In this document: in pieces, positions 2,687 to 42,277 of the stretch
Position numbering within the stretch: the first letter of the stretch is position 1
Layout: each line of letters begins with the position of its first letter
Source: Thermoanaerobaculia bacterium
Lineage (GTDB): Bacteria > Acidobacteriota > Thermoanaerobaculia > Multivoradales > Multivoraceae
Direction of reading: 5' to 3'
DNA: 64,000 bases
NCBI GenBank assembly: GCA_963664405.1
Contig: OY761158.1
Coordinates: 2,784,001 to 2,848,000, forward strand
Made by a program: the position numbers and the translations under genes
The notes under the pieces: model-generated
Database searches by the model: none
What the model was told of the DNA's origin: nothing
Seen by the model: the letters and a program-made list of their open reading frames with translations, nothing else

Positions 2687-3729
2687 CGAACCCACCCATC
2701 AAAAGCTCACAATACGGCGAGCCACCGAATGACGACGAGGTCGCAAGGCTGATCCGCATGGCCGGACGGCCCGCGGTGCCACCTCTTGACGATATGACCG
2801 CGATCAAAGCCGCGGGGCGAGCGGAGTTCCGGCGGCGCTGGGTCCGCAAGCGCTAGCCCAGCCGAGTTACGATCTCGCTGGCGCTCGCCGCAGCTTTGGG
2901 TTTCGCGGCGCTGGGACTCATTCTGTGGCGGAGCACCCCCGAGGTAGCCCCCTTCCCGGCCGCTAGGGTGGCGTCGGTGGAGGTAGTGGAGGGAGACGTT
3001 ACTCTGCTTCGTAGCGGGGGGGCCTCCGGCACTTGGGCTCTGGAGCCTGAGGGTGTCGTTGTCGCCGGCGACCGTATCGAAACCGCGCCTTCAGCGGGTC
3101 ACACTGCTCTACTCATGGACGACGGAGTCTCCTTGCGGCTCGACGGCGGAGCCCGAGTCGTATTTGTCGATGCCGACACGGTCGATCTCGTTGAAGGGGC
3201 TCTGTATGTGGACGCTGCGCCGTCAGCCGAGGTTGCTTCCGTGCTGCGTATTCGCACACCTCTGGGTGTGGTGCAGCACGTGGGCACCCAGTTCGAGGTG
3301 CGTTTCACCGAAGGGGAAGAAGGGAGCTTGCGCGTTCGGGTACGAGAAGGTCGTGTTCTCGTTGCCCGAGAAGATCAGACCCTCTCTCTCGAGTCCGGCG
3401 AAGAGCTTGCGGTGGCCGACGATGGGGCCGTTGTCCGCGGCGAGATTTCGACCCACGGTGCCGCCTGGGACTGGGTCTTGGAAACGGCGCCGCCCTTCGA
3501 GATCGAGGGCCAGTCGCTGCAAGTCTACCTAGACTGGTTGGCTCGGGAGACAGGCTGGGAGATCGTGCTCGCCGAAGGCGCGCTCGACAGGCCGACCGAT
3601 GAGGTCATGATGGCCGGTCCGGTTCTCCACGTTCGACCCGACGAAACGCTCAAAGTTGTATTGCCTGGTGTGGACCTCGCCCATCGCTTCGTCGAGGGTC
3701 GCCTGATCCTCGAGCATCTGATCCCCTAG
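2683..3729 (+). pseudogene. FecR-family anti-sigma factor with an in-frame TAG at 2854-2856
   Basis: ATG overlaps the sigma stop (ATGA). The frame is continuous with the 2896..3729 ORF except for TAG at codon 58. FecR motifs TPLGVVQHVGTQFEV and VRVREGRV. Confidence 0.75.
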
Positions 3730-3892
3730 TGCCGTGTCTCCGACATGGCTTACCAATATCTCGGCCCCTTTAGCCCGCTGCCGTCGTCGCGACTCGTCGA
3801 CATATTCCCAATATGCCTGCCTCGTCGCTCCTTGACAGCGAACAAAATGGCCTCGAGCTCTTGGCAAGCCATGTCGGAGACACAACACCTAG
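3726..3892. mobile_element. CTAG-bounded palindromic element (MITE-like), subfamily A
   Basis: CTAG at 3726 and 3889; arms TGTCTCCGACATGGCTT / AAGCCATGTCGGAGACA; core TCGACATATTCCCAATATGCCTGC shared with the other copies. Confidence 0.85.
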
Positions 3893-6567
3893 AACTCCCA
3901 GGTCACACCTAGAGAGGGGAAGATGCCGGGCCATGCGTCCTCGAGTACGATGAGCACTTGCTCGTCCTCGTCGACCTCGATGTCGAACCCGGCGACGTTT
4001 TCGCGATCGTAGAGATTCTGCGCGTCGAGGAAGAAAGTGATCGAGCCTCGTCGAGTCGACCAACGTCGGCTGGCACGGAAGTCGAGTCGGTGGTATTCGG
4101 GCAGCCTCAGGCTATTCAGGGGACCGAGCGCTAGACGGAAGGTGTCCTCGCCGTCCGGGTCTTCTTCGACAACCAGACTTATGGGTGTAGTCGGCCAACC
4201 GGTGTGGTATCGCCAGGCGAAGTTTAGATTCCAATTGTCATTGGGGCGGAAATTGAGATCGAGATTGAGAGCATGGGTCTGGTCGATCTCTCGTCTGATG
4301 GTCTCTGCATCGATTCTGTCCTCGGTGTTGGCATAGGCGTAGTTTGCCCACCAGCCCACGCGGGGGCCGAAACGGCCGCGCAAGTAGACCTCGACTCCCT
4401 CTGCACTACTGCTCTCCGGAACGATGCGAAAGCGGTCGGGCTCCGCCTCTGGAAAGATATTGATGGCCTCGAAGAGATTCTCATAGCGAGGTCTGGGGTC
4501 CGAGATCGTTTTGCTGTAGGCCTCGACGCGGAGAGCGAGAGGGTAGACCGGCGAGTCGCCTCGAAACGTGTGCTCGAAGCCAACCACCACCTGTTCGGAG
4601 CGCTCAGCCTTGTGAAACTCGGTCTCGCCGTCGGCGACCTGTAGCTCATAGGCACGCTGGCTCTGGAAGAAATGGCCCCAGCCGATGCGCAACGCGCTGG
4701 TGGCGCCCGTTGCCAGGGCCATATTGATACGTGGGCTGAGCAGCTCGTCGTCGGTAAGCGAGTGCTGGTCGTAGCGAAGCCCGAGGGCGAGGGTGAGAGG
4801 CTCTACGACTCTCACCTGGTCGGTGAGGAACCCTCCGTAGTAGTCGTCGCGAAAGCTTGCGACGAAGCGTTCGACCCCGTCGGGAGGCTCGCCTTCGATG
4901 GGCACGATGGGGGCGCTGAATTCCCGAGTATTGAAGTAATCGTAGTCGGAATCGAAGCGTCGTCCTTCGAGACCCCACAGAAGAAAATTCGACGCTCCCG
5001 CCTGGAGATTCCAAGATTGAAGAATGCCGAAGACGTCCATTCGACGAATGTCTGCGATCTCGAGTAATTGCCCTACGTCGTTCTCGACCCCGGTTCGGTC
5101 GCGGTCGATGGCGCTGGTCGAGAGGACCGTATCGATGTAGAGAACATCGGAGAGTACCGACTGATGGGTTCCCCACAGATAGGCATTGCTGTAATCGGTG
5201 TCGAAGAGCTTGGTCTCGCCGTCGATATCCTCGGTCAGGTTGAGTTTGTCTTGGGCCTGTAGGGCGCTGAGCCTCAACGAGTTCGCTGGGGACACTCGGT
5301 AGTCGAGCTTGCCGAAGGCGTCCCAGAACTCAGGGTCTTCGCCGCCGAAGACCCGGCTTGCCAGGTCGACCGACCCCCGCCGCAGCGAGGCGAGCCAGTT
5401 GGCTCGTTCTTGGTCGAAGGTCCCAGAGCTCCCGAACTGAGCCGTGAGGATGCTTAGACCGACCGAGTACTGCCGACCGCTGTCAGCGATTGTTGTTGTC
5501 AGATCGAGGACCCCGCTCATGCGATCTCCGTATTCGGCCTGGTAGGCACCGGTGGAGAGTGCCATGCTCTGGAGGCCGGAGTCGGCAACGATGCTGAGCC
5601 CGTCGTCGAAGTCCTTGAGGTGGTAGGCGTCGTAGAGCTCCTGGCCATCGAGAAGGATCTGTACTTCGTCGCGACGGCCCCCTCGGACGTGAAAGCCTGC
5701 CGAGACATCGTTGCCGGTGGTACCGGGCATGAGCGTGATCGCACGAAAGAAGTCGCCGCCGAGGTGAGGCAGCGCAAGCATGTCGTCGCGGCTCAATGCC
5801 AAGGGGGCTGCCGGCTCTTCGAGCAGAAGAGAGATTCTGCTCGGGCTGACGACGATCTCGTCGCTACTGAGAGGTGTCGGTTGCAGAGTGATCGAGATCT
5901 CATGATGGGTACCGGTGGCGATCACCAAACTCTGTCGCTGCTCGACGACGAAGCCTGGATGCCGGGCCTCGAGGGTATAGGTGCCGGCCGCCAGGCTGTC
6001 GATCTCGAACCGGCCATCCTCGTCAGTCCGGCGCTCGTCGCCCGATTCCAGGACTCGAACAAACGCCCCGACCACGGGACCGAGGCCGCGCCGGGAGCGA
6101 ACCGAGCCGGAGAGACTTGCTGGAGTGCTCGCCGCCACTTTGGCCAGGCGGATGACCGTGAGGGTGCCTCCGGGCCCGGCCTGGAGGCCTAGACCGTGCG
6201 CGCGCAAGAGCTCTTCGGCGAGGTCGCGCACGTCTGTTGCCCTGGGCTCTGCGGTGACCTCGAGATCGGGTGAGACGATCAGATCGCTCCAAAGGAGGTC
6301 GAGGCCCGCGTCTCGCAGCTCGGCGAGGACAGCGCTCAGGCGTCGACCGCTGTAGGTCGCCGTCGCGGAGTCTGCGTCAGGGTCCTGTGATGATTCTGAC
6401 CGTGCCCAGCTCGAGCCGCCAGGCGCGGTCAGACCCAGGCAGGTGACCAGCAGCACAGCCGTCATCAAGGGGCGGCTCGAGGTCGATTTGCCGGCTCCGC
6501 CCCCAGAGCTCTCCCCTAGTCGCTGGGTGCCGCGAGTTGATCTGTCAAAGGGTGCTGTCGCTGCCAT
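3889..6567 (-). CDS. TonB-dependent receptor with N-terminal signalling extension and carboxypeptidase-regulatory-like domain
   Basis: 892 aa; plug motif FHVRGG..DG..LYDAYH, GAYQAEYGDRMSGVLDL; C-terminal LGVTWEF. Confidence 0.9.
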   Translation of the reverse strand: MAATAPFDRSTRGTQRLGESSGGGAGKSTSSRPLMTAVLLVTCLGLTAPGGSSWARSESSQDPDADSATATYSGRRLSAVLAELRDAGLDLLWSDLIVSPDLEVTAEPRATDVRDLAEELLRAHGLGLQAGPGGTLTVIRLAKVAASTPASLSGSVRSRRGLGPVVGAFVRVLESGDERRTDEDGRFEIDSLAAGTYTLEARHPGFVVEQRQSLVIATGTHHEISITLQPTPLSSDEIVVSPSRISLLLEEPAAPLALSRDDMLALPHLGGDFFRAITLMPGTTGNDVSAGFHVRGGRRDEVQILLDGQELYDAYHLKDFDDGLSIVADSGLQSMALSTGAYQAEYGDRMSGVLDLTTTIADSGRQYSVGLSILTAQFGSSGTFDQERANWLASLRRGSVDLASRVFGGEDPEFWDAFGKLDYRVSPANSLRLSALQAQDKLNLTEDIDGETKLFDTDYSNAYLWGTHQSVLSDVLYIDTVLSTSAIDRDRTGVENDVGQLLEIADIRRMDVFGILQSWNLQAGASNFLLWGLEGRRFDSDYDYFNTREFSAPIVPIEGEPPDGVERFVASFRDDYYGGFLTDQVRVVEPLTLALGLRYDQHSLTDDELLSPRINMALATGATSALRIGWGHFFQSQRAYELQVADGETEFHKAERSEQVVVGFEHTFRGDSPVYPLALRVEAYSKTISDPRPRYENLFEAINIFPEAEPDRFRIVPESSSAEGVEVYLRGRFGPRVGWWANYAYANTEDRIDAETIRREIDQTHALNLDLNFRPNDNWNLNFAWRYHTGWPTTPISLVVEEDPDGEDTFRLALGPLNSLRLPEYHRLDFRASRRWSTRRGSITFFLDAQNLYDRENVAGFDIEVDEDEQVLIVLEDAWPGIFPSLGVTWEF

Positions 6568-6616
6568 CGCGTAAGGGTCGAGGCATAGCCGACCCAGAGC
6601 AGAATACCAGTCGGGA

Positions 6617-6901
6617 TCAGTCGAGATCGAAGATCTGATGGAAGCCTGCCATCTCGAAGATCTCCCGGATGTGGGTGTTCATGTTGGCGATACGTAGCCG
6701 GTGTCCGGTTCCCATGAGTCGCTTCTGCGCGGCGAGGAGCACTCCCAAGCCGGCACTCGAGATGTACTGCAACTCCCTGAAGTCGATCGTCCCGGACTCT
6801 GAAAGGTGGTCCAGAACCTCTCGGGCCTTACCCTCCTGGGATGCGTCAAGGCGACCCTTGAGCTCGACGTCGCCATTGTCTTTACGGCTGATCTCAAACA
6901 T
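6617..6901 (-). CDS. STAS domain anti-anti-sigma factor (RsbV/SpoIIAA-like)
   Basis: LKGRLDA, YISSAGLGVLL, IFEMAGF motifs. Confidence 0.9.
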   Translation of the reverse strand: MFEISRKDNGDVELKGRLDASQEGKAREVLDHLSESGTIDFRELQYISSAGLGVLLAAQKRLMGTGHRLRIANMNTHIREIFEMAGFHQIFDLD

Positions 6902-7310
6902 TTTCGTGCTCCAAATACTTCGCTACCGAGATCGTCATCGTCCGGTTGCGATACTCGTAAGCGATCTTGTCGACCATCGACTTGACCAATTGCAGCCCGA
7001 GGCCACCTGGCTCCCGCTCTTCAACCGGGAGGCTGGTGTCTTTCTCGGGTGCGTTCGCGATGTCGAAGGGGTCGACATGCTCATCAACGAGGTCCAAGAG
7101 GAGTTGGGCTCCTCGGCGTCGGATCTCGATGCTGATGCCACCGCTGCCGATGTTGTACTTCACCATATTGGTGAAAAGCTCCTCGACGACGAAGTTGAAT
7201 GCGAACACGGGGCCCTCTCCCAGGTTTTCGCGTTGGAAGAACTCCGACAAGAAAGAGAAGATGTCTTCGAGGGACCCGATACTGCGAGCGAAAGTGCGCT
7301 TTTCGGACAT
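6894..7310 (-). CDS. Anti-sigma factor Ser/Thr kinase (RsbW-like HATPase_c)
   Basis: EELFTNMVKY, PFD, REPGGLGLQLVKSMVD motifs. Confidence 0.9.
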   Translation of the reverse strand: MSEKRTFARSIGSLEDIFSFLSEFFQRENLGEGPVFAFNFVVEELFTNMVKYNIGSGGISIEIRRRGAQLLLDLVDEHVDPFDIANAPEKDTSLPVEEREPGGLGLQLVKSMVDKIAYEYRNRTMTISVAKYLEHENV

Positions 7311-7326
7311 TCCGTGAAGCGCGACA

Positions 7327-7725
7327 CTAGGTGAATCTCGCAACCAAGAGGGAGAAATCGTCTTCGAAAACGTCCTCCCGCATGACGTTCCGCACTGCCT
7401 GCTCGATCCGCTCAGGCTCACCGCTCTCCAACGCCGGGCCCGCGACCACCAGGTCGAGGAATTCGTCCATGCTCCACTCTTCGCCCGCTGTAGTCACGAC
7501 CTCGAAGGCTCCGTCGCTGTACACATACAAGCGGCTGCTGGGCTCGACAGTGATTTCGGCATCTTCGAAACTGAGATCTTCCATCAATCCGATCGCCATG
7601 TTGGGAGTACGCAGTCTCTGGTTCGATTTCTCACTCAGGAGCAGAGCCGAGGGGTGGCCGGCAGACGCGTAGAGGAGCTTACGGTCGCTCGAGTCGAAGA
7701 TGCCGTACCAGAGGGTGAAGTACAT
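7327..7725 (-). pseudogene. 3' part of FHA-SpoIIE (PP2C) phosphatase, separated by IS insertion
   Basis: MYFTLWYGIFD..YASAGHP..YSDG..EDDFSLL, which continues the 9670..10371 fragment. Confidence 0.9.
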
Positions 7726-7803
7726 CTTGGGTTCAAGGGGTCGTCGCAACGTTGCCTTGGTGAGCAGAGTGTACAAACTCATCGAAGACTTCGGCAGGGG
7801 TTC
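7726..7803 (-). mobile_element. Extra IS30-family right-end fragment (78 bp)
   Basis: Near-identical to 8218-8295 (3 mismatches); CAT at 7723-7725 matches CAT at 9670-9672. Confidence 0.85.
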
Positions 7804-8217
7804 TGAGCGGTCACGGTTTCGTGGACACCAAGTTAAGCCCCATCGGGGCAGTTCCTATTCTGCATCAGTTCGGGTAGTCAGCTTCGGACGAGGCTGTGCG
7901 AGGTTCGGGGAGCGCAGCCTCCCTTCGGATCCGACCGCCGGTCGCGCGTGAGTTCACGCTGCCCCTTCGAAGGCCTCGGGGCTCAGGAATCCGAGCGTCG
8001 AATGCTGGCGTCTCAGGTTGTAGAACACTTCGAGGTAAGAAACCGCTTCGTCGTGAGCTCGCTGACGAGTCTCGAAGGGTCGGTCCCAGACCTCGGTCTT
8101 GAGACTGTCGAAGAAGCTCTCCAAGACCGCATTGTCATAACAATTTCCGACGCCGGACATGCTGCAGCGAAACCGCAGCTCAGCCAGCCGATCCTGGTAA
8201 GCCTTCGAGGCGTACTG
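7804..8217 (-). mobile_element. IS3-family remnant (right end and C-terminal integrase core)
   Basis: Terminal TGAGCGGTCACGGTTTCGTGGACAC; peptide QYAS..SMSGVGNCYDNAVLESFFDSLKTE..FYN..RQHSTLG..SP. Confidence 0.9.
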
Positions 8218-9669
8218 CTTGGGTTCAAGGAGTCGTCGCAGCGTTGCCTTGGTGAGCAGAGTGTACAAGCTCATCGAAGACTTCGGCAGGGGTTCTCCAG
8301 CCGAGGGTCTTGCGGGGTCGGCCGTTGAGTGCGAGCGCGACCGCGGCGAGGTCGTCGCAGGAGTATCTGACAAGGTCGGTGCCCTTCGGGAAGTACTGGC
8401 GTAGTAGTCCGTTGGTGTTCTCGTTGGTGCCCCGCTGCCAGGGGCTGTGCGGGTCGCAGAAGTAGATCGCGAGGCCGGTATCGACGCGGAGTTGAGCGTG
8501 TTGAGCCATCTCGGCGCCCTGGTCCCAGGTCAAGGACCGGCGGAGCTGCTCGGGCAGCGTGGTGATTGACACCGCGATCGCGTCACGGACGGCTTCGGCG
8601 CCGTGCCCGGCGAGGGCCGGCCCGTTCTTCACCCTCGATTCGGTCCCGTGCCCTTCCATGCGGGGCAGGTGCAGCAGCATCGTGAACCGCGTAGTGCGTT
8701 CGACGAGGGTCCCGATCGCTGAGCTCTCGAGCCCGACGATCAGGTCGCCTTCCCAGTGACCCGGCACGGCCCTGTCGCCGGCTTCGGCGGGGCGTTCGCT
8801 GATCATGATCTCCGGAGTTACAAATTTCTTGCCTCTCCCCCGGGTTCGCGCATGCGGCACTCGTAGCGCTCGCCCGGTTCGCAGGCACGCGACGAGCTCG
8901 CGTTTGAGGGCTCCTCGACCTTGGATGTAGAGCGCTTGGTAGATCGCCTCGTGAGAGATCCGCATCGACTCATTATGGGGGAAATCAATCCGAAGCCGGT
9001 TCGAGATCTGCTCCGGACTCCAGGATTTCGCCCAACGCCGATCCTGGCGACGGCCGTGCCGACGGCCGATCCAACGCACATCCGGACCCGGCACCAGCTC
9101 CCCGTCAGGCCTTGCGATCACGCCGGCGAGGCGGTTCTGCACGTACTCACGCAAGGCATCGTTCGCGGCAAGCTTGGAGACCTTCGGACGGCTGGCGCGC
9201 CGCTCCGCGTGCCACTGCGCAGTCGTGGCCCGATAAGTTACGGCACGGCTGCGAGTCGCCGCGTTGCGGCGCAGCTCCCGCGAAATCGTCGACGGTGAAC
9301 GACCCAGGCGGCGAGCGATCTCACGTACCCCAACATGCTGAGCGTGAAGGATGGCGATCTCTTCACGCTCGGCGAACGACAGATAACGCCCCGACACCGG
9401 AGCCAACGAGATAGGTCGCATTCCACCAGCTTGCCTGAACCATCTCGACCCGACAGCCGGCGACACCCCAGCCTCTGTTGCGGCGTCCTCGCTGGACGCC
9501 CCACGAGCGATCGTCTCCCAGAACCGGATCCGGTCCTCGCGCCGCGCTGTCGAGGGCCGGCCAGGTGACCGCATCTGGCCACGCATCGCTCGAATCGCAC
9601 CCTGACACTTGCCAACTCCCATCGAAACACCTCCATCACGAGATGTTGCGACGACCAGTTGAATCCGCC
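8218..9669 (-). mobile_element. IS30-family insertion sequence
   Basis: Imperfect IRs CTTGGGTTCAAGGAGTCGTCGCA / GGCGGATTCAACTGGTCGTCGCA enclosing the transposase. Confidence 0.92.
8225..9622 (-). CDS. IS30-family transposase
   Basis: HTH (LSFAEREEI..RSPSTISRELRRN), WSPEQIS, PGHWEGDL, TWDQGAEM, HSPWQRGTNENTNGLLRQYFPKG; GGAGG RBS before ATG 9622. Confidence 0.95.
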   Translation of the reverse strand: MGVGKCQGAIRAMRGQMRSPGRPSTARREDRIRFWETIARGASSEDAATEAGVSPAVGSRWFRQAGGMRPISLAPVSGRYLSFAEREEIAILHAQHVGVREIARRLGRSPSTISRELRRNAATRSRAVTYRATTAQWHAERRASRPKVSKLAANDALREYVQNRLAGVIARPDGELVPGPDVRWIGRRHGRRQDRRWAKSWSPEQISNRLRIDFPHNESMRISHEAIYQALYIQGRGALKRELVACLRTGRALRVPHARTRGRGKKFVTPEIMISERPAEAGDRAVPGHWEGDLIVGLESSAIGTLVERTTRFTMLLHLPRMEGHGTESRVKNGPALAGHGAEAVRDAIAVSITTLPEQLRRSLTWDQGAEMAQHAQLRVDTGLAIYFCDPHSPWQRGTNENTNGLLRQYFPKGTDLVRYSCDDLAAVALALNGRPRKTLGWRTPAEVFDELVHSAHQGNAATTP

Positions 9670-10371
9670 CATGTTGCCATGGTCTTCCATCCGGAAAGAT
9701 CGATTGAGAGCGGCAAGCACGTCGGCCGGCTTGGAGAAATCGACTCCTGGCAGGGCTTGCTTGGACAGGAGGTTCAGCACCGCCACCGAGTGCAAGGCTG
9801 GAGCTGTGCCGTGGCCGGAAACATCCACGAGATAGATAGCGAACTTCTCGTCGGTGATCCAGTGATACCCGAAGGCGTCGCCTCCGAGCTTGTCCGAAGG
9901 AATGAAACGCCATTCGGTCGTCACCCTATCGGTCTTCAGAGGAGCTGGCAGCAGAGAGCGAACGTACCTCGAGGCCTTGTCGAGATCGCCGGCTAAGCGC
10001 TCCTCTTCTTCGACTTCGCTCTTATTTCGATACTCGTGTTTGAAGAGCGAGTTGCCGACCTGGACCATCGAGCCCACGGCGACCACCTGTGGCTCCTCGA
10101 CGGACTCTTCGTCGACGAAAGTTCCGTTGCTCGAGCCGAGGTCCTCTACGACGAGTTGTCCGACGATCACGCTCAGGCGGCAATGCCTCCCGGAGGTTGC
10201 CGGGTCTTGGATCAAGATGTCGGCCCCCTCCTTGCGCCCGACCGTGATTGCCGTGGATGGGAGCTCGATCCTCTTGCCGGACATCGGCCCCTCGACAGCA
10301 AGCAGATAGTGTCTACGGTCGCGCGACGAAACAGTCTGACGCTGAGCGACGATGGTCTTGTCGAATTCCAT
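9670..10371 (-). pseudogene. 5' part of FHA-SpoIIE (PP2C) phosphatase
   Basis: FHA (VGR..SGRH..DLGSSNGTFV) plus SpoIIE start (LGGDAFG..DVSGHG); truncated at the IS end. Confidence 0.9.
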
Positions 10372-10469
10372 GGGGCCTTGGCGACGGACGGCTCTAGCAT
10401 TGCCGGTCCGGACCCCGCATCGTATGACGAGTCCTCTCGGGTCGGGGCCTCGAAAGGACGATGTGCCTG

Positions 10470-10664
10470 CTACGCGGCCCCGTCGGTGGCGACTCGGACC
10501 TCGTCCATGAGGGCCTGAAGGTAGTCGCCGTAATCGACGGCCCGGCCGGCCCTACGTTCGGCCCAGGTGCGCGGCCGACGGCCGTGGCGTACGAGGCCTT
10601 CAAGAGTCGTCTGGAGGGAGGTCTTCTCGCGATCGAGGATATTCTGAGCTTGGGATTGGGGCAT
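10470..10664 (-). CDS. Small hypothetical protein
   Basis: 64-aa ORF with CAGGAG RBS, co-oriented with its neighbours. Confidence 0.45.
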   Translation of the reverse strand: MPQSQAQNILDREKTSLQTTLEGLVRHGRRPRTWAERRAGRAVDYGDYLQALMDEVRVATDGAA

Positions 10665-10782
10665 GGAGTCTCTCCTGGAGCTGGCTGTTGAAGCCTTCTT
10701 GGCTGCTTGCTCCTCTAGGTACGGGAAAAGCCGCCTTCGGTTTCGCCTCCGCAGCCACTTCCGCCGCCGAAGAGCTCTGTTG

Positions 10783-11334: not shown

Positions 11335-11395
11335 CGACTGATCATACGCTCGAAAGAGAGCTCGGGCTCTCGCACGGCTCCTCAGAACTGCTGAC

Positions 11396-15977: not shown

Positions 15978-16038
15978 CCTACCCCCTAGGGTGAAGACAG
16001 CGACGAGCGGCGTTGCGAAGATGAGCCTCCCACCGAGA

Positions 16039-16204
16039 CTAGACCAGCGTTTCCACAGTTCGCGCACATATCTCGGCCCCTTCTGTCCGCTGGCGGCGTT
16101 TCGCCTCCTCGACATATTGCCCAATATGCCTGCGTCGGCGCGCCTGGCCAGCGAACAGAATGAGCTCGAGCTATTGCACACGAACTTTGGAAACGCTGGT
16201 CTAG
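16039..16204. mobile_element. CTAG-bounded palindromic element, subfamily B copy 1
   Basis: CTAGACCAGCGTTTCC...GGAAACGCTGGTCTAG; 166 bp; 2 differences from the reverse copy at 24100. Confidence 0.9.
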
Positions 16205-16324
16205 CGGTGGCGGAAGGAGTCTGCAATGGTGCCGGAGCTTGTCATCTTCGCTGTTTTGTTCTCGGTCTTGGTGGTTCCCTCGGACCCAAAAAACATTCTT
16301 GCGGGCGGTGTTCAAGGCTGGGCA

Positions 16325-16492
16325 CTAGTGGACGGTAACACTCGAACGTTTAGTGGCTGAGTGAGTCATTCGTGGTCGAGATCAAGGCGCGCTGACGCAG
16401 GCATATCGGGGACTATGTCGAGGAAGCGTAACGCAGAGATCGGCCGCGAGGGCCGCTCAGGCGCTAATCGTTTGGGTGTTACGGCCCACTAG
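16325..16492. mobile_element. CTAG-bounded palindromic element, subfamily C copy 1
   Basis: CTAGTGGACGGTAACAC...GTGTTACGGCCCACTAG; 168 bp; about 6 differences from the reverse copy at 42110. Confidence 0.9.
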
Positions 16493-16505
16493 ACCCTAGG
16501 GCTCG

Positions 16506-19717: not shown

Positions 19718-19799
19718 CGTCCCCTCACCTCTCTTGGGATGCGCCGTCCTCGGCGCCATGTTGCGTAGCCGATGGGAGTGATAGCGATCATTCCGTCGC

Positions 19800-23194: not shown

Positions 23195-25146
23195 CTAGCA
23201 CTGAGGTTCGGTCTCCTGGTCCGAGCTTGTTGGCCGATACCCTTCCCGTTCGCGTAGCACGACCACGTCTCCGCCTCCGAGTGTTCCATGGAAGCGCTTG
23301 GCCGTTTCGAAGCTTGCCAGCAGTTCTGTCCACATCTGCGGGTCGTTGGCTTTGAGGTGCCCACCAAAGTGAGGATGACCCAGGTCGTACCGGCGGCTGA
23401 AAGATGGGCTTGGAGCGCCTCGACCGACGAAGCCCCTGCCATCCCGGGGGCGTAGAGAGCTCTGTAGACCGAAAGCGCCATCCCCACGGCGACCGATCGG
23501 ATCCTCGGGAGCCTTCTGCGCGAGAACCCAGTCTCGCGCTCCGGTGAAGTCCTGCTTTGGACTGCGGTAGTTGCGAGGCAGGGCCAAGGCCGACAGCAGG
23601 ATCAGGGCAAGGACGAATATGGCTCCCAGATTCTGCCTAGCTCCACGAAGTCGATCGCCGAGGTCGTCTCCCAAGAGTCGCGTACCCACGACTACGAAGA
23701 GGGCGGCGAAGCCGAGCTCGTTGAAGAAGAAGCGGGGCCACAAGTTTCTCTCGAGTAGAGCCAATGTGCTCCCACCAAGAACGGCGGGAAGGACGAAGCA
23801 CCAAGTGGCAACCGGTGTCCGTCGCCATAAGCTTCTGGTGCCTATGAGCAAGACCAGCGCGGCCGCGATCAGCCCGGTCCAGCCCAGTACCGACCCGATC
23901 GCGAGTCCACGCACGGTTTCCGCTAGCGCCCAAAGGGGGCTCTTCCACTCTTCAGGTCCGGTGCCGGCGCCGGCGGATGGTTGGGTGTAGAAGGCGAGGA
24001 CCTGGGGAAGGACCAGGGCGTAGAGCTGCAGCGTCAGCGTTGTGGCAAGAAGGAAGCCGACCCCTGGGCGCCATCGCAGAGTAGAGCCACTCTGCCGCAC
24101 TAGACCAGCGTTTCCAAAGTTCGTGTGCAATAGCTCGAGGTCATTCTGTTCGCTGGCCAGGCGCGCCGACGCAGGCATATTGGGCAATATGTCGAGGAGG
24201 CGAAACGCCGCCAGCGGACAGAAGGGGCCGAGATATGTGCGCGAACTTTGGAAACGCTGGTCTAGCAGCGTGGCCACTACCAGAAAGTGGGCGGTCACAA
24301 CGAAGACCATGCTCAGATGGAGACCCATGCCCACCGCGACGACTCCCGAGTAGCCGATCCAGGTGGACCAGCGACCCTGCCACAGCCCCCGCAGCAGCAG
24401 GTCGGTTGCCAGCACAGTAGCGAAGAGGAGTCCGGTGTAGCCGCGGGCGTTTGAGAGAACCATACGTGGTGGTAGGACACGGCGAGCAGAGCGACGACCA
24501 GAATCGTGTCGCGCTGACTCGTGACGAGAGAGGCGAGACGCTGTGTTGCCCACAGGCTGGCAACGCCGAAGACGACTGCGGGAAGGCGCAGTGCGGCGGC
24601 GCTCTCTCCAAATGCGGAGACGCTGAGGTGCCCGAAGACCGAGTAGAGGAGGTGGTTGTTGTCATCCGTATAGCGGGTGAGGATCTGCCCTAGGGAGGGC
24701 CGTACGAACTTCACCAAGGTGGAGACTTCGTCGATCCACAGATCCTGGTGGATACCGATCCAGCGCAGCACGAGCGCTAGAGCCAGAAGGCCTACCAAGG
24801 CGAGCGGGTAGCCCCTGCTGGGGGCAACTACCGTCTTGGTTGTGGGCGGTTGCCACAGAGAGTCCTCCGGACCGAGGACGGGCGCTTCACCTGCCCTTGG
24901 CCGCCAGACTGCAGCCACGAGCCAAAGGCCGTGAAAGAGGAGTAGCGCCTTGAAGAGCTTCGCGCCAACCTGCAGCTGCTCGAAGCGGGGGCCCGGATCA
25001 GGCTCCAGCCTAAGGATGACAGAGACCGGTAAGAGCACAGCCATCAAGACCAGGCTCGCGCCCAGGCCGAGACTAAGCGCTCGATCTCTCTTCGCCGCCT
25101 GGAGTGAGGGTCTGTGATGGTGGCGGGCCAAGGGTGATAGCTGCAC
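23195..25146 (-). CDS. GT39/ArnT-like membrane glycosyltransferase (GT-C) with three 1-nt indels and an in-frame palindromic insertion
   Basis: LWIDE, NNHLLYS, FGES..ALRLPAVVFG, HVWFSQ(N)ARGY, WPRFF; indels near 24451, 23497 and 23367. Confidence 0.8.
24100..24265. mobile_element. CTAG-bounded palindromic element, subfamily B copy 2 (in-frame, intragenic)
   Basis: Reverse complement of 16039-16204; net +162 nt read as LDQRFQSS...NAGL in the host frame. Confidence 0.92.
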
Positions 25147-34967: not shown

Positions 34968-34979
34968 TGAACTCAACTC

Positions 34980-35519: not shown

Positions 35520-36103
35520 TCCACCTCCCGCTCGAGGCGGGTCACACTATCGTCGAAGATGCGGTCTAGGTCGCTGGGCTCGATCTCGTCTTGGATCTGC
35601 TGCCGCGCGAGGTCGGCGGCGATGCGAGCGGTGTGCGCTGTCAGTTCTTCTCGTGCCTGATCCACTCGAAGGCGGATCTCCTCCTGTGTTCGCGTCAGGA
35701 GCCGTTCACGCTCGAACTCTGCTTGGGCGAGGATCTCCTCTCTTTCGCGGTGCGCATCAGCCTCCGCACGCGTGAGGATCTCATCCATCTCTTGCTTCAG
35801 CTCCGCGATCTGGCCTTCGAGGGAGGCCTTCATGTTCTCGGCGTCCTGCCGCTGCTGGCGCGATCTTTCCAGATCTTCCCGGATCCCCTTGGCTCGCGTT
35901 TCCAGAAAACTGCGGATCGGGGGTACAACGAAATACCCCAGAACGCCGAGAAAGAGAAGCAGGTTTGCCCACAGCCAGATCCACCGAGGAAGCCCCAGAA
36001 ACGTGTCTGAGCCCTCGCCTCCCTCTGAGGCGAGAAGAGTAGGACTCAGGAGTGCCGCTAGCAGCGCTGCCTGCACCCAAACGAGGCGCTGTCTTTTCTT
36101 CAC
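35516..36103 (-). CDS. atpF: ATP synthase F0 subunit b
   Basis: TM (ANLLLFLGVL) then long coiled coil; position before atpH. Confidence 0.9.
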   Translation of the reverse strand: MKKRQRLVWVQAALLAALLSPTLLASEGGEGSDTFLGLPRWIWLWANLLLFLGVLGYFVVPPIRSFLETRAKGIREDLERSRQQRQDAENMKASLEGQIAELKQEMDEILTRAEADAHREREEILAQAEFERERLLTRTQEEIRLRVDQAREELTAHTARIAADLARQQIQDEIEPSDLDRIFDDSVTRLEREVE

Positions 36104-36522
36104 GCCGGTCTTCCGAGCAGGTTGGCAGCCATCTGCCTTGCTATCGACTGCGCTCTCTCGCCGAGAGTCTGTCGCTCATGTGCTACCTGGGACTCGAGCT
36201 CGAGACGAGCCTCGTTGAGCTCGCCTTGAACCTGTGTTTTGACCTCGGACAGCATCGCGAGTCTCTTGTCCTGCGCCTCTCGGCGCTGCTGCTCGCGCTG
36301 CGCCATCGCTTCGCGGCGCGCCTCGGCAAGCCGCGTGCGCTCCTCATCGATCGATTTCGCGGTCTCGTTCAGGGCCTCGTCGTAAATGGTCTGAGCGCTG
36401 CTGACGCGAGTTTCTCTCTCGTCGAGCAGCCGCATCATTGGACTGAAGAAAAACACTCGCAGGATGACGTAGGTAATCCAGAAGATCCCCATAATCACCA
36501 GGAGACTGGCGTCGAAACTCAC
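36100..36522 (-). CDS. ATP synthase F0 subunit b'
   Basis: N-terminal TM, FF.P...LLDERE, coiled coil. Confidence 0.88.
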   Translation of the reverse strand: MSFDASLLVIMGIFWITYVILRVFFFSPMMRLLDERETRVSSAQTIYDEALNETAKSIDEERTRLAEARREAMAQREQQRREAQDKRLAMLSEVKTQVQGELNEARLELESQVAHERQTLGERAQSIARQMAANLLGRPA

Positions 36523-36586
36523 CGCGCTGGATCCTTTGACTTGAGATGCCCCGATACGTCCCAGAAGAGGGGCCAGAAACGCGCGG

Positions 36587-36615
36587 AATTTACCATGGCC
36601 CTAGCGGAGGGTCAA
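36587..36615 (-). promoter_or_regulatory. Sigma70-type promoter of the atp operon
   Basis: TTGACC-17 bp-TAAATT with an extended -10 TG, 65 bp upstream of the b' start. Confidence 0.65.
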
Positions 36616-36713
36616 GCAAGGAAGACGCTCCAAAGTCGGTCGCTGGGGTACTCCCTTTCAAGGTCAATATAATTAGGCCGAGCAGCCTGGATGACGACAC
36701 TCCCGAGGTCGAA

Positions 36714-37313
36714 ATGAGCTCCGAATACGACGCCTTTCTCGGCCCATCGAAACCCTCGCTCGAGTCCTCACATCTGGATGTGGTCAGAGCCCATTTTCGT
36801 GAGGCCAGCCTTCCCTATACCTCTTCTCCTTTGCCCTGGTTCGCTTGGGCCATCGTACTCCCGGCCTCCGCCTTTGCTACTCCTTTTGTCGCCGAGAGAT
36901 TCAGCTGGATCGGAGTGCTCCTGCAGTGGTCCCTGACCATTCTTCTCGGAGGGGCCTTCGAGATCGGCTCGATGCGGCAGCAGAGGGGCCCCTTGGTTTC
37001 GAGGGCGATCTCCTCCTGGGTCTTTGGCGTGCAGGCCAATCTCTCACTGGTAGCGATCGCTCTCTCCTGTCTGCTGCTTTGGCAGCAGGCGGCCTGGGCG
37101 CTCCCTGGACTCTGGCTCTTGTTACTCGGGCACTCCTTCGCAGCATTCGGCGGCCTTTCGTTCCCGGGTCTGCGCCAGATGGGGCTGCTCTACCAGCTTG
37201 GCGGCTTCATAGCCTTGTGGCCCAGCGGGCATCCGCTTCTGGTGCTAGGGCTGACGACTTTCGTTGCCAACATGTGGATGGCGACTACAGTGCTGCGCCG
37301 CCGGGATACTTGA
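36714..37313 (+). CDS. Hypothetical multi-pass membrane protein
   Basis: About 6 TM segments; TATAAT at 36668-36673 upstream. Confidence 0.7.
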   Translation: MSSEYDAFLGPSKPSLESSHLDVVRAHFREASLPYTSSPLPWFAWAIVLPASAFATPFVAERFSWIGVLLQWSLTILLGGAFEIGSMRQQRGPLVSRAISSWVFGVQANLSLVAIALSCLLLWQQAAWALPGLWLLLLGHSFAAFGGLSFPGLRQMGLLYQLGGFIALWPSGHPLLVLGLTTFVANMWMATTVLRRRDT

Positions 37314-37899
37314 AGGTCAACGACCGACTCAGCCAGTCGCTCAAGGAGACTCCCTTCATCGCTGAAAGCACGGGCAGGCCGGCAAGGGCTAGAGTGATAA
37401 GGGCGCCGAGCCATCTGAGGGCGGCTTGCCGGAAGCTGAGCGGACGTTGAAGGCGGTCCTGGGAGGACAGTCTGAACCAGGCCATTCCGGCCGTCTGCCC
37501 CCAGAAGGCCAGGGAGACAACCGTGTAGAGAAATGAGAAGGCGAGGAGCAGTAGCGCCAACGCTGGCCAATGATCGAGCTGTGGTTGAACCGCCATCGCC
37601 GAGAGCCCGAGTGAGACGCCGGCGAATACGCCGGCGTGAATGAGGAGGTCGGCGGCTCCGCTCAAGTAGCGCGAGGCGAGGCTCGCGATCACCGGCTCGT
37701 CTTCACTGACGAGCTCTTCGCCTCCTTCGGGCGAGTCCTCCTCCTGGGAGCCCTCAGGGTCGAAGAGACCCGCCTGCTCTGGAGATGGCTGAGGCACCGT
37801 CGAAAGGCGCTCGACGTAGGCTTCTTCGGGACCCTCTAAGGGCAGGTCGAAGAGAAGCGGCTCGACGTCGGCCGGCTGTCTGCGCTGTTTCTTCTTCAA
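37285..37899 (-). CDS. RDD family protein
   Basis: ASLASRY..AADL, GQTAGM, QAALRW, SDWLS. Confidence 0.8.
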   Translation of the reverse strand: MKKKQRRQPADVEPLLFDLPLEGPEEAYVERLSTVPQPSPEQAGLFDPEGSQEEDSPEGGEELVSEDEPVIASLASRYLSGAADLLIHAGVFAGVSLGLSAMAVQPQLDHWPALALLLLAFSFLYTVVSLAFWGQTAGMAWFRLSSQDRLQRPLSFRQAALRWLGALITLALAGLPVLSAMKGVSLSDWLSRSLTFKYPGGAAL

Positions 37900-39689
37900 C
37901 GGCGGAAGGCCAACTCACCGACGTAGATATCGTAAAGAAGGTCTCTGGGGTACTCGAGATAGGTCTTGACGAAGAGACTCAAGCGCGCGATTTGCTCGTC
38001 GTCGGGGCTCAAGCGGCTCGCTTCCTCGGCATGCTCCTCGGCAGCCTGAGGCTCGCCGCGTCGTAGCTCGCGGACGGTGAGGTTGTAGTAGCTGCTCGTC
38101 AAGAGCGATACAACGTCGCGGTTTCCTGGATCTTGATCCAGGTGGCGCCACAGGCTCGGCAGTGCGAGCTCCCACTGGCGCTGCTGATAAAGGTCGATCT
38201 GCTGCGCAAGGGGCTCGAGCTGCCGCATCGAATCGTCGAGCAGAGCCGCTTCGGCGGCGGAGAGCGGCGCCATCAAAGAGGCCTTTGTGAACAGTTGCGC
38301 GGCCTGCAAATACTCGCGGTCGTCATAGGCCGTTCGCCCATCGGAGATGAGGCTCCGGTGACGCTCTTCCTCCTCGCCGGTGAGCAGTGGGGCCTCGGGC
38401 TCGACGCGCGCCTCCAGTTCCGCCTCCCATTGAGCGAGCAGTCGTCTTGCCTCCAGGAAGTCCTTGTCGGAGGAGCCGATCGCCATCAGAAGGCCCATCG
38501 CTTCATCTTGACTTCCGTCGGCGTAGAGCTGAGTGATCCTTGCGATGCGCTCGGCATCGGCGTCGGTCGCTTCGTCCACCACGTTGGGGAAGAGACGCCC
38601 CCAGTTACTGAAAAGCAGCCAGGCGGCGATCAGCACAATGGCGAAAACGCCGCTGCCAATCGCGAAGAACGGGTTGATCGGCTTTCCCTTGGCCCTCGCC
38701 GACATACGGTAGGTCGGGTCGGCGACGCGGGGAGGCTGATCGACATCAGCACTCGCGGGCTCGGCGTCCGCAGCAGCGGGCCGCTCGGCGGCTGCTTCTG
38801 TCCCGTCTACTCCCTCTTGGTCCGCCTGCGCTTCGCCTACCGCTGAGCTCGCGTCGCCCGACTGCAGCCCCTCGAGGTAGTCTCGCGCGGCTACGTTGTT
38901 CGGCTGGATGCGGAGAACGCGGTTGAAGGCCGCGATTGCGTCTTCGGTGCGGCCGTCTTCGGAGAAGCCCACCGCCTGATGGAAGATCTCTTCAACCTGG
39001 CGGTCTCGCTCTTCGTTCAACTGGCGCGCGAGGTCGATTCGGCGTGTTGCCTCTTCGTGATCGATGTCGATGAGAAAGATTCGTGACCAGGAGTCGATTG
39101 CTTCCTGGTAGCGCTCGTCGTCGAAAGCAGCCTGGCCTTCACCAAGGAGCGTTTCGATTTTGTCCGAGCCGTCACGGTCGGTGTCGGGAGTGCTCGGCAC
39201 CGGATCGTCGTTTGAGAGAGGGCTCTGCAAGTCTGCGACGATCGCGGTTTCTTCCGTGCCTGTCGCTTGACTGTCCGTCGCCTCTTGAGCGGCAGCTTCG
39301 GATGCGGGCGCTTCGGTAGCGGGCGGCGGCGCCGGAGCGGACGCGGGTCCGGTCTCCACGGGCGGCGGTTCGCCCTCCGCCATGGGTGCCTCCAGTTCTT
39401 CCTTGCTCAGTCGCACCGTCTTCAACACCTCCGGCTCGGAGGGTGCGGCGGCCTCTGCAGCCGGTGCGGCTGTCAGGTCGCCTGTCTCGACGGGTCCAGT
39501 AGCATCTGCCAATCGTTGCTGCAAGACCAAGGCGGGAGTGAAAAGAGGATCCAGCCGCAACATGAAGTCGCAGCCGAGGCGAGCCTCCTGCACTTTTCCA
39601 TCAGCCGCCAGCTGCGACGTCTGCTCCAGGGTGCCAAGAACCCGCTCCTGGATCTGAGGGTCTAGATTGGGATCTCCTGGATAGCTCAT
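37896..39689 (-). CDS. TPR-containing membrane-anchored protein
   Basis: TPR-like helices (AIDSWSRIFLID, AFNRVLRIQPNN), acidic linkers, single TM. Confidence 0.8.
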   Translation of the reverse strand: MSYPGDPNLDPQIQERVLGTLEQTSQLAADGKVQEARLGCDFMLRLDPLFTPALVLQQRLADATGPVETGDLTAAPAAEAAAPSEPEVLKTVRLSKEELEAPMAEGEPPPVETGPASAPAPPPATEAPASEAAAQEATDSQATGTEETAIVADLQSPLSNDDPVPSTPDTDRDGSDKIETLLGEGQAAFDDERYQEAIDSWSRIFLIDIDHEEATRRIDLARQLNEERDRQVEEIFHQAVGFSEDGRTEDAIAAFNRVLRIQPNNVAARDYLEGLQSGDASSAVGEAQADQEGVDGTEAAAERPAAADAEPASADVDQPPRVADPTYRMSARAKGKPINPFFAIGSGVFAIVLIAAWLLFSNWGRLFPNVVDEATDADAERIARITQLYADGSQDEAMGLLMAIGSSDKDFLEARRLLAQWEAELEARVEPEAPLLTGEEEERHRSLISDGRTAYDDREYLQAAQLFTKASLMAPLSAAEAALLDDSMRQLEPLAQQIDLYQQRQWELALPSLWRHLDQDPGNRDVVSLLTSSYYNLTVRELRRGEPQAAEEHAEEASRLSPDDEQIARLSLFVKTYLEYPRDLLYDIYVGELAFRR

Positions 39690-39788
39690 GTCACGGCCAC
39701 TGCGCAAAGAACACAAGCGATGGTAACAGAGGGCGTTGGCGGCGGACAATCCGAGCGGCCCTCTGCGGCTCGCGAATATACTCCACGC

Positions 39789-40733
39789 GTGACCTTGCTG
39801 GAGACCGTCCCCAACCTGAGCGAGGGCCGCGATCAGAAGGTGATCGACTCGGTCACGGAGGCCTTGGCGTCAGCTGTCGGGGTGCGCGTGCTCGACGTCT
39901 CCTCGGACCCGGATCACAACCGCTCGGTGATCAGTGCGGTTGGAGAGGCAGCTTGTCTCGAGGCCGGCCTTCTGCGAATGTACGAAACAGCGCTGGCTGG
40001 AGTCGACCTCTCGCTGCACTCAGGTGCTCACCCCAGAGTGGGAGCCGTCGACGTAGTTCCCTTCGTGCCAATCGAAGGAAGCTCGATGGCCTCGGCGGTC
40101 GCGGCGGCTCGGAGTCTCGGGCGTAGAGTGGCCCAGGAGCTCGACATTCCGGTATTTCTGTACGGTGAGGCTACCGAGTGCGGTGAGCCACGACGCCCTG
40201 TCTCGGTGCGCCGTGGCGGAGTCGAAGCTCTCGCCGGCCGTCTGGCAGCGGGCCGGATCCGGCCCGACTTCGGCCCCGTCGAGTTGGATCGTCGGCGTGG
40301 TGCGACCTTGGTTGGGGCACGCGGGCCGATGGTTGCATTCAATGTGACGCTCTCGGTGTCCGGGTCGGAGCCGGCGCAAACCATCGCTCGGGCTATCCGA
40401 GAGCGCGATGGAGGCATGCCGGGGGTTCAGGCTCTGGGTCTCGCCTTTTCTCGCCGACGAGGTGCCCAAGTCAGCGTCAATCTCTTCGAGGCGGCCGGAA
40501 CCACGCTCTACTCAGTGCTTACCCGTATCCAGGAAGAGGCGCTGGCTGTTGGGGTCGAAGTTAGAGAGAGCGAGATCGTGGGCCTGGTGCCGGAGGCCGC
40601 CCTTCTCGGGGCTACTGCCCAAGCTCTCCAGCTACCTCAGCTCCGCCGCCGCCAGGTGCTGGAGTCGTACCTCGAGCGAAGCCCGCTGCCAGCCGCCGCG
40701 GCAGGCCCTCGAAGCTTCCCGAAGACATCGTGA
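39789..40733 (+). CDS. ftcD: Glutamate formimidoyltransferase
   Basis: VPNLSEGRD, DPDHNRSV, HPRVGAVDVVPFVP, GAR..VAFNV, QVSVN, SEIVGLVP. Confidence 0.92.
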   Translation: MTLLETVPNLSEGRDQKVIDSVTEALASAVGVRVLDVSSDPDHNRSVISAVGEAACLEAGLLRMYETALAGVDLSLHSGAHPRVGAVDVVPFVPIEGSSMASAVAAARSLGRRVAQELDIPVFLYGEATECGEPRRPVSVRRGGVEALAGRLAAGRIRPDFGPVELDRRRGATLVGARGPMVAFNVTLSVSGSEPAQTIARAIRERDGGMPGVQALGLAFSRRRGAQVSVNLFEAAGTTLYSVLTRIQEEALAVGVEVRESEIVGLVPEAALLGATAQALQLPQLRRRQVLESYLERSPLPAAAAGPRSFPKTS

Positions 40734-42075
40734 CGATAACTTCCCCTCGTGGTCCTTCTGCGAGAACGCCGGCGAGCAGCTCGTCGATCGAGTCCCAAAT
40801 GTGGGTCGCAACGCCGCTGCGCCCGAGCGCCCGGGCGAGCTCGTCGAAGTCGATCCGTTCACTATCGTTCAATCGCTTGGCGTGGAAAACAGGTGCCAGG
40901 TGGACCACGTCGGCGCAAGAGAAGGCCTGAAGGTAGGCGTCGCGGAGGAAGCTTCGGCCGCTGGTCAGCGAGCGTGGCTCGAAGACGGCGACGACGGAGC
41001 GCCCCGGGAAGCCCTGGCGGATCGCGACGAGGGTGGTCTCGATCTCAGTTGGGTGATGAGCGAAGTCGTCGATCACGACCACTTCCTCTTCCTCCAGTAC
41101 GACCTCCAAGCGGCGGTGCGCTCCCTGAAACGTACGGAAGGCCTCCTGAATGCCTTCGATCGGTAGATTGTCTCGACGAGCCAGCGCCCAGACTGCCAGC
41201 GCGTTGCGAAGGTTGTGCTCCCCCGGCACCTGTAGGCTCAGATCGACCGCGCCCTCGACTTTGTCGTTGACGCGAAATCGAGTGCCTTCAGCGGTCAGCT
41301 CGGGCGGAGCCAGCGGATGTACGTCCTGCTCTTTACCGAGACCGTAGGTCGTTACCTGGCAGGGGGCGCCGGGGAGAAGGTCAGCGACCCCAGTGGCCTC
41401 GCCATCGGCAATCAGTGCACCCTCGGCCGGCAAGATTGCGAGAAGGGAGGCGAAGGCGGCGCGAAAGCTCTCTGGATCGGGGTATAGATCGACATGATCG
41501 TGCTCTACCCCCGTCAAAATGACCGTTTCAGGGCGATAGTGGAGGAATTTTGGTCCTCGATCGAAGTAAGCGGCGTTGTATTCGTCACCTTCGACGAGAA
41601 ATCTACGCCCACGGCCCTTGGCAAAGCTCGTTGGCAAGTCGCGGGGCAGCCCGCCGATGAGATAGCCGGGATCCTCACCACATAGGTGGTAGACCCAGGC
41701 AGCGAGAGTCGTGGTCGTGGTCTTGCCGTGAGTGCCGGCGATCACTACCGGTGAGCGGCCCTCGAGGAAGAAGTGGCCTAGGGCTTCTGGCATCGACATG
41801 CGCTCGAGGTCGAGGCTCTCCAGGGCCTCGGCCTGAGGGTTGGTTCGAGGCACGGCGTTGCCGACGATGACCAGATCCGGGAGCGGCTCGAGATGCCGCG
41901 GATCGAATCCCGGCAACGGCTGAATACCCTCGTTCTCCAGTAGAGTGCTCATCGGTGGGTACAGAGGGCCGTCCGATCCTCGCACCTGGTACCCTTCTTG
42001 CTTGAGAAGGCACGCGAGTGGAGCCACGCCGGTGCCGCCTATGGCGATAATGTGAATCGTACGGAGGTCTTTCAT
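40612..42075 (-). CDS. mpl: Murein peptide ligase (MurC/Mpl family)
   Basis: YPPMST.L, VGNAVPR.NP, GTHGKTTT, EGDEY.AAYFDRGPKFLHY, DDFAHHPT, FEPRS.T. Confidence 0.9.
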   Translation of the reverse strand: MKDLRTIHIIAIGGTGVAPLACLLKQEGYQVRGSDGPLYPPMSTLLENEGIQPLPGFDPRHLEPLPDLVIVGNAVPRTNPQAEALESLDLERMSMPEALGHFFLEGRSPVVIAGTHGKTTTTTLAAWVYHLCGEDPGYLIGGLPRDLPTSFAKGRGRRFLVEGDEYNAAYFDRGPKFLHYRPETVILTGVEHDHVDLYPDPESFRAAFASLLAILPAEGALIADGEATGVADLLPGAPCQVTTYGLGKEQDVHPLAPPELTAEGTRFRVNDKVEGAVDLSLQVPGEHNLRNALAVWALARRDNLPIEGIQEAFRTFQGAHRRLEVVLEEEEVVVIDDFAHHPTEIETTLVAIRQGFPGRSVVAVFEPRSLTSGRSFLRDAYLQAFSCADVVHLAPVFHAKRLNDSERIDFDELARALGRSGVATHIWDSIDELLAGVLAEGPRGEVIVTMSSGSFEGLPRRLAAGFARGTTPAPGGGGAEVAGELGQ

Positions 42076-42109
42076 TAACATCACGCTGCGGATTGGACGC
42101 TGGGTTTAC

Positions 42110-42277
42110 CTAGTGGACCGTAACACCCAGACGTTGAGCGCCTGAGCGGCCCTCGCGGCCGATCTCTGCGTTACGCTTCCTCGACATAGTCCCCGATATG
42201 CCTGCGTCAGCGCGCCTTGATCTCGACCACGAATGACTCACTCAGCCACTAAACGTTCGAGTGTTACGGTCCACGAG
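42110..42277. mobile_element. CTAG-bounded palindromic element, subfamily C copy 2
   Basis: Reverse complement of 16325-16492; right end degenerate (CGAG); lies between divergent genes. Confidence 0.9.

Follow-up and report, generated by a model that had tools for sequence, protein, structure and literature searches.

A modular family of CTAG-bounded palindromic elements with a covarying core in Acidobacteriota, probably mobilised in trans

The 64,000-nucleotide stretch of contig OY761158.1 analysed here (positions 2,784,001 to 2,848,000, from a Thermoanaerobaculia bacterium; the window) contains five short palindromic elements bounded by CTAG. They belong to a new, very large, old and widespread superfamily of MITEs (miniature inverted-repeat transposable elements), which amounts to hundreds of copies per genome. 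The elements insert at CTAG, are mobile and have been active recently, and each is built of modules, with a covarying core of about 70 nucleotides (nt) set between outer arms that differ from one arm type to the next. We favour, with moderate confidence, a model in which they are mobilised in trans, probably by transposases of the IS630 type, and in which the core is required in cis.

A common core between exchangeable arms

The five elements were found where an earlier note on this DNA had placed them, with lengths of 166-168 bp, and every flank reads CTAG except one. Element A1 (3726-3892, plus strand, 167 bp, arm type A) lies between two CTAG flanks and has its core module at about 3774-3842. 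B1 (16039-16204, plus strand, 166 bp) represents the commonest arm type, B, and is likewise flanked by CTAG on both sides, with the core at 16086-16155; B2 (24100-24265, minus strand, 166 bp) is of the same type and has its core inverted, at about 24149-24218 as mapped from B1. The two elements of arm type C are both 168 bp long: C1 (16325-16492, minus strand) has an inverted core at about 16375-16444, mapped from C2, and C2 itself (42110-42277, plus strand) has its core at 42158-42227, a left flank CTAG and a right flank CGAG. Complementarity reaches 99% over 166 nt between B1 and B2, and 96% over 169 nt between C1 and C2. The arms differ between the subfamilies and the core is common to them, as the note had described, and the breakpoints of identity are sharp: B and C have in common a stretch of 68 nt at 79% identity, and A and B match centrally over about 105 nt (57 nt at 84% and 54 nt at 81%). 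In A, B and C the outer arms, 35-37 nt long, show 81-86% complementarity.

Folded as single strands, A (-39.5 kcal/mol, z -7.1) and B (-50.8 kcal/mol, z -9.1) are rod-like, and C reaches -32.7 kcal/mol; for each of the three, none of 200 shuffles folded as well. The z of C is only -3.4, and its pairing therefore lies mainly in the outer arms. The claim that the elements are self-complementary along most of their length thus holds for A and B but not for C. Types A, B, C, D, F and G have the end pattern CTAG-N5-YGT; E and H lack it.

The genome that contains the window (G000) is a single 6.78-Mb contig of 62.6% G+C. Searched with a core profile (nhmmer), it gave 257 matches, 235 of them with paired arms; the 22 others, as traced, are longer variants, copies interrupted by an insertion sequence (IS) or fragments. 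Exact matches to the core, TCGACATA-N(6-9)-TATGCCTGC, number 151, and there are 223 matches when up to two substitutions are allowed, one of these being a chance match. A count anchored on the arms yielded 223 copies (B 128, C 31, G 22, A 15, D 11, F 8 and E 8), to which the further small arm types H and I are additional, and at least nine arm types surround the one core. About one element per 13 kb, as the earlier note had estimated, is right for the window, but genome-wide the density is about one per 26-29 kb. Pairwise identity within an arm type is 93-98%.

A typical copy is 164-169 bp long, and those of arm type E are 183-199 bp. Type B also has length derivatives of 177-180 bp (24 copies), 244 bp (5), 256-257 bp (5), 2706 bp (2) and 3639 bp (1). 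Strict selection on length, as proposed earlier, is not supported by those of 177-180, 244, 256-257 and 2706 bp, which occupy different CTAG sites, nor by a class of 181-187 bp in other genomes.

At the other extreme of size are ten minis of 29 bp, in which the first 4 nt of the A left arm are joined to the last 21 nt of the A right arm, with CTAG at either end (G000:C1 515322, 970858, 1246019, 1386504, 2162938, 4086595, 4678297, 5442159, 6310368 and 6758819). The internal junction is identical in all ten, which could be recurrent hairpin-driven deletions or mobile minis. Arm types B and E also show pairs of 57-84 bp.

The contrast between core and arms was measured on 29 aligned representatives, 10 arm types of G000 and 19 elements from 9 other genomes. 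The core averages 0.70 in pairwise identity, the arms and inner segments 0.42-0.44, and the identity profiles between types rise abruptly from low to high. The three stems of the core covary strongly. In an alignment of 25 sequences the three-helix structure pairs 88.7% of cells, compared with 71.8% in shuffles and 26-35% when partners are slid, and 16 of the 19 core pairs show double-sided changes. The apical stem, for example, occurs as CATAT/ATATG, CGTAT/ATACG, CATAG/CTATG, CGTAG/CTACG, CAGAT/ATCTG and AAGAT/ATCTT. Adjoining it are the boxes CCTCCTCGAC and GCCTGCGTCG, which are nearly invariant and largely unpaired.

The family extends well beyond this genome. Of 150 genomes of the order, 76 matched a covariance model of the core, covering 45 of 64 genera and all 12 families; of 150 genomes in an even sample of the phylum 34 did, other classes among them. 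In each tally one genome (G157 and G210, respectively) carries an unpublished flag. The elements of the matched genomes have the same build, are mostly 160-169 bp long and have TAG...CTA ends, with other arms, though types similar to F, G, C and B are met again in further genera. When a public genome collection was scanned for exact matches to a degenerate core pattern, at least 104 stretches were returned, of which 80 were listed. Among these matches listed, most are labelled Acidobacteriota or Thermoanaerobaculia, and 30 bear other labels, two of them only 'uncultured bacterium'. By depositor label, the others listed include Deltaproteobacteria, Nitrospirae/Nitrospirales, Polyangia, Methylomirabilota, Sporomusaceae, Syntrophobacteraceae and Desulfobacteraceae, as well as one Planctomycetota metagenome-assembled genome, many of whose matches lie at contig ends.

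Insertion at CTAG, recent mobility and placement

CTAG is present on both sides of 170 of the 223 copies in G000, a genome in which the tetranucleotide is found 7502 times compared with about 23,230 expected from base composition, or about one third. Paralogous sites supply empty alleles. For the element at 6225673-6225839 they have a single CTAG, in one case GTAG, and for that at 4969290-4969455 the nearest empty copy reads CTAA. Contigs from public samples match the window flanks at about 98.7% yet skip elements. In run X6, contig record 20 joins 16038 to 16489 with 106 letters between, its flanks differing from the window at 16 of 1285 and 19 of 1523 letters; from the lengths alone, this fits a contig without B1 and C1 in which the spacer is retained. 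Run X8 has a joint from 16328 to 16501 that removes C1. These empty alleles bear out the earlier description of the elements as non-autonomous and mobile, and the identity within arm types together with insertions that are polymorphic between close strains confirms their recent spread. Short-read assemblies break at element copies, and the elements serve as presence/absence markers between close strains.

The context of the 223 copies was judged by crude gene calls. By this measure 202 are intergenic and 21 lie inside open reading frames (ORFs). Copies are over-represented in convergent spacers, which take 77 of the 202 but make up 1094 of the 5440 spacers of the genome, and under-represented in divergent ones (27 copies). 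The stop codon of 95 neighbouring genes is the TAG within the flanking CTAG. Relative to the upstream gene, the core has the same orientation in 51 cases and the opposite in 47.

Candidate transposases and a model of transposition

A copy consists of outer arms that are terminal inverted repeats, of which there are many lineages, inner pairing segments and the central module of about 70 nt, and it inserts into a CTAG, often one that holds the TAG stop of a gene. In the model that we favour, DDE transposases, likeliest of the IS630/Tc1-mariner type, would recognise the arms and move the elements in trans, each arm lineage answering to its own transposase lineage. Master copies would need the central module in cis to propagate, possibly as an architectural or host-factor site that helps to draw the ends together, and new arm types could arise by replacement of arms around the fixed module. 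Both the mobilisation in trans by IS630-type transposases, perhaps also by IS5-like ones, and the role of the core in cis are steps that we infer.

The target and the arms point to this type of enzyme. The earlier note had linked the CTAG target to IS5-family transposases; IS630, with the TA in CTAG as its target, fits at least as well. Tenzen and Ohtsubo reportedly found in 1991 that IS630 transposes to the TA within 5'-CTAG-3'. By hand count, the H arm agrees with the left end of the IS630-like element of G000, which lies at about G000:C1 5164179-5165423, at 23 of the first 33 positions, and the F arm with its right end at 17 of 24. By eye, the B arm TAGACCAGCGTTTCC resembles TAGACCGCTTCC, the end of an IS630-like element of a relative, G028. 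These resemblances of the H, F and B arms, and the conservation of arm types across genera, speak against the view that the sequence of the terminal repeats is not selected. There are two DDE_3 loci in G000.

Coding partners were sought through arm pairs at any distance, short BLAST, an inventory of repeat ends near CTAG and 15-nt arm motifs. The only candidates for a coding element with B arms were the copies with cargo described below, an IS21-interrupted copy, fragments and longer variants. The interrupted copy lies at 6281697-6285335 and is split by an IS21-type gene pair. Next to a B-arm match in G018 (L007) there is no transposase. Insertion sequences flanked by CTAG are present in G000, namely an IS1182-family element (8 copies), an IS1380-family element, ISNCY_1 and the IS630-like element, and none of the four contains the core. 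The ends of ISNCY_1 resemble the D arms. As a general partner we rejected ISNCY_1, which has homologues in only 13 of the 150 genomes of the order and in none of five copy-rich genomes, and IS1182, with nothing above the cut-off in the same five. The ISNCY_1 homologues of G140 have CTAGCTAG at both ends.

Genes resembling Y1 (HUH) transposases, with proteins of about 300 aa, occupy 13 loci in G000 (for example L274-L277). We rejected these Y1/RAYT-like genes as a partner on both proximity and co-occurrence: their median distance to an element is 11.2 kb, equal to the 11.2 kb simulated, none of the 13 lies within 2 kb of a catalogued copy, and the gene family is found in four of five copy-rich and two of five core-negative relatives. 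It is strongly expanded in the relative G005, where 38 matches were counted, several of them tandemly arranged around C2:4455685-4487535.

A number of observations weigh against the model of IS630-type mobilisation. The similarity between arms and terminal repeats is modest and ungapped and was picked from several comparisons. Despite more than 128 young B copies, G000 has no full-length IS bearing arms of type B, C, A, F or G. Among copy-rich relatives, of which one set of five was used for DDE_3 and another, overlapping, set of five for ISNCY_1 and IS1182, DDE_3 had no match in G005, G145, G047, G037 and G142; ISNCY_1 and IS1182 had none above the cut-off in G028, G047, G005, G145 and G033, and in these last five IS630 rose above it only in G028 and G033. 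No one transposase family is common to all the copy-rich relatives checked. The requirement for the core in cis is likewise something that we infer.

The flanks in G000 count on the same side. At the eight flank positions, L1 to L4 on the left and R1 to R4 on the right, non-consensus bases number 16, 10, 3, 3, 2, 7, 20 and 19 of 222. The outer bases vary at 65 of 888 (7.3%), and the inner AG/CT vary at 15 of 888 (1.7%), like the positions of the arms (78 of 5160, 1.5%); outer versus inner gives a Fisher p of 7e-9. L2 and R3 together are more variable than L3 and R2 (p = 0.002). These statistics do not fit a simple TA duplication, and they point to zero duplication or to one of only the outer target bases. 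Variants are one-sided (TTAG..CTAG in 8 copies, CTAG..CTAA in 4) or mirror-symmetric (TTAG..CTAA in 2), and matching direct pairs such as TTAG..TTAG are absent from G000; of six elements there with non-CTAG on both sides, none has identical flanks.

The relatives G028 and G047 gave another picture. The same trend in the flanks is weak there (20 at the outer and 9 at the inner positions, p = 0.048, with n = 35 and one locus entering twice). Direct flanks that are not palindromic, GTAG..GTAG and CTAC..CTAC, occur in two independent elements of G028, and one further element of the G028/G047 sample has CTGG..CTGG, pairs that are expected from a 4-bp duplication. The empty site is itself the palindrome CTAG, so that duplications of 0, 2 and 4 bp look alike. 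The flank statistics of G000 and the direct pairs in the G028/G047 sample are at odds.

Alternative readings

The flank statistics are the main support for another reading, one that we regard as unlikely, in which an enzyme, possibly host-encoded, would read the core or the folded rod and not the sequence of the arms, cut the stem at its base and insert the element, with ends AG...CT, into the middle of CT^AG without duplication. We give as little credence to the idea that the core is a recognition module in cis for a widely distributed enzyme or host factor that processes a folded rod, and the arms are interchangeable spacers needing only to pair. If so, an internal signal would be what defines this class of bacterial mobile elements, across Acidobacteriota and, by labels, several other phyla. 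The inner AG/CT, as invariant as the arms, would belong with the element and the variable outer bases with the target; one-sided and mirror-symmetric variants without direct pairs in G000 agree with this, as does an element in another class (L093) with ends AAAG..CTTT around AG..CT. The core is also better conserved than the arms across the phylum, several copy-rich genomes are without the candidate DDE families, and the IS91 cargo described below sits exactly in the apical loop, where it could be tolerated in a folded form. Against an enzyme that reads the rod stand the arm lineages, which are kept across genera and resemble IS630-like ends, and the insertions of 13 nt beside the core or of 78 nt inside the rod, each present in several copies at different sites. 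The direct flanks GTAG..GTAG, CTAC..CTAC and CTGG..CTGG, and the weakness of the replicate flank test, also argue against it, as do the Y1 genes, with their random distances and their presence in four of five copy-rich and two of five core-negative relatives. Mismatches give no indication of the strand that would fold: with one invariant T-G set aside, the core has 11 G-T and 8 A-C mismatches and the arms 9 and 18, respectively, which is no bias. The earlier suggestion of a single-stranded DNA or RNA intermediate is thus left without a strand-specific sign, the orientation of the core (51 versus 47) being balanced as well.

Less likely still is that the host uses the core as an RNA or DNA signal at gene ends, be it a transcript stabiliser, a terminator or a protein-binding site. 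The placement of 202 of 223 copies between genes, the convergent enrichment (77/202 versus 1094/5440), the 95 genes that end in the flanking TAG and the covarying stems of the core would all suit such a role. However, the core is oriented at random to the upstream gene, the insertions are polymorphic between close strains, and the placement can be put down to the CTAG being tolerated at these sites. Rfam had no match in the window at the gathering score, and at a relaxed threshold only MIR839 (34 bits, gathering score 200) was of note, beside a negligible L31-Firmicutes match (E = 0.92); a signal scan found no promoter- or terminator-like site inside B1 or C1.

Finally, the subfamilies could be internal deletions of an IS that bears the core. 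The candidate for an autonomous master is a mobile 2706-bp element with B arms, both core halves and two genes. Its two copies (G000:C1 6272417-6275122 and 6758844-6761549; L009 and L011) are 97.4% identical and lie at different CTAG sites, and the unit therefore moved through its B arms. It carries about 2.5 kb of foreign genes, an IS91-family Y2 transposase (398 aa) and an Xer/integron-like tyrosine recombinase (299 aa), exactly in the apical loop. We rejected this gene pair as the master element; it has only two copies, both inside B arms. The core halves are absent from the IS91-transposase loci of relatives (L030-L048), only the locus of G000 itself having them, and the IS91 genes are therefore cargo and not master. 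That the small elements derive from such an IS is very improbable, given that 235 of the 257 core matches are small elements with paired arms and the rest longer variants, interrupted copies or fragments, that no core match falls inside any IS family placed in G000, that the relatives' IS91 loci are without core halves and that the hairpin loop is split by the cargo in the manner expected of an insertion.

Relation to known repeat systems

We did not find a description of this family in the literature consulted, mostly open-access texts without supplements. Bacterial MITE families are usually recognised by their ends and have a narrow host range. Here an internal module is about 70% identical, with compensatory changes, over the order and the phylum sample, and the ends are replaced. 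Since the centre is kept while the ends are replaced, the family would have either an undescribed cis function in transposition or a history of repeated arm capture around the module.

The closest parallels may be drawn with MITEs of the IS630/Tc1-mariner group, such as RUP of pneumococci, a MITE attributed to that family. They have in common with our elements the CTAG/TA target, terminal inverted repeats and small non-coding derivatives moved in trans, as is probable for ours, and the H, F and B arms resemble IS630-like ends. The present family is unlike them in having one central module with many unrelated arm lineages, kept across the phylum, in several copy-rich genomes without an IS630-type gene, and in flanks that misfit a plain TA duplication.

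The Correia elements of Neisseria and the ERIC/IRU elements of enterobacteria are about 100-170 bp long, fully self-pairing and located at gene ends, with a conserved centre and, to our knowledge, no securely assigned transposase, all of which recalls the present elements. Their ends are conserved too, however, and their range is a genus or a family. The present family has differing ends, and its centre is preserved over at least the order and the phylum sample. The palindromic elements of Rickettsia, to which the earlier note likened the core and the ends, are of similar size and can insert inside genes; 21 of the 223 copies here lie inside ORFs by the crude gene calls. Rickettsia is named in none of the 80 titles among the matches listed in the core scan.

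MITEPsy1 of Pseudomonas syringae is 100 nt long with 18-nt repeats, inserts at CTAG or YTAA with a 4-nt duplication and derives from the resident ISPsy2, which has the same ends (PMC3189936). It is, like our elements, a bacterial MITE at CTAG; unlike it, they have no parent with the same internal sequence, and a 4-nt duplication is unsupported in G000. REP/REPIN sequences are described as 20-40 bp long, mobilised by RAYT (Y1 HUH) proteins and conserved at their ends, with a terminal GTAG (PMC3733652). The likeness lies in hairpin-forming intergenic repeats with a terminal tetranucleotide (GTAG there, CTAG here) and in the numerous Y1 genes of G000, and the difference in the centre, which is what is conserved here, and in the Y1 genes, which are neither near the elements nor track the family in 10 genomes.

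Other observations

As the earlier note had stated, the window holds no cognate transposase: its sole IS-like gene, at 8225-9913, has ends unrelated to the elements. This minus-strand gene is an ORF of 562 aa that contains an HTH_38 domain, and an end-like sequence is repeated at 7720-7804 and 8212-8296. The region 7720-9913 is multi-copy, its contig depth reaching several hundred in four runs, and is probably an insertion sequence. The largest repeat cluster of the genome, with 124 merged intervals, is an IS-like repeat of about 2 kb with an open frame of 498 aa (for example G000:C1 71644-73682).

A second small repeat system consists of the motif GCGCCGTCCTCGGCGCC beside palindromes of about 40 bp, GGAAATGATA...ATCATTTCC, which are CTAG-bounded; it is present at 19737-19762 of the window and at many other loci, and in run X12 another 36 letters of the same sort are inserted at 19737/19762. 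At about 16795, 24 bases of the window are missing from the contigs of all four runs compared with it, either a strain difference or an assembly duplication. A direct repeat of 300 nt in the window (D1, 96% identical) corresponds to two paralogous genes for family-4 glycosyltransferases, at 56241-57503 and 59814-61043.

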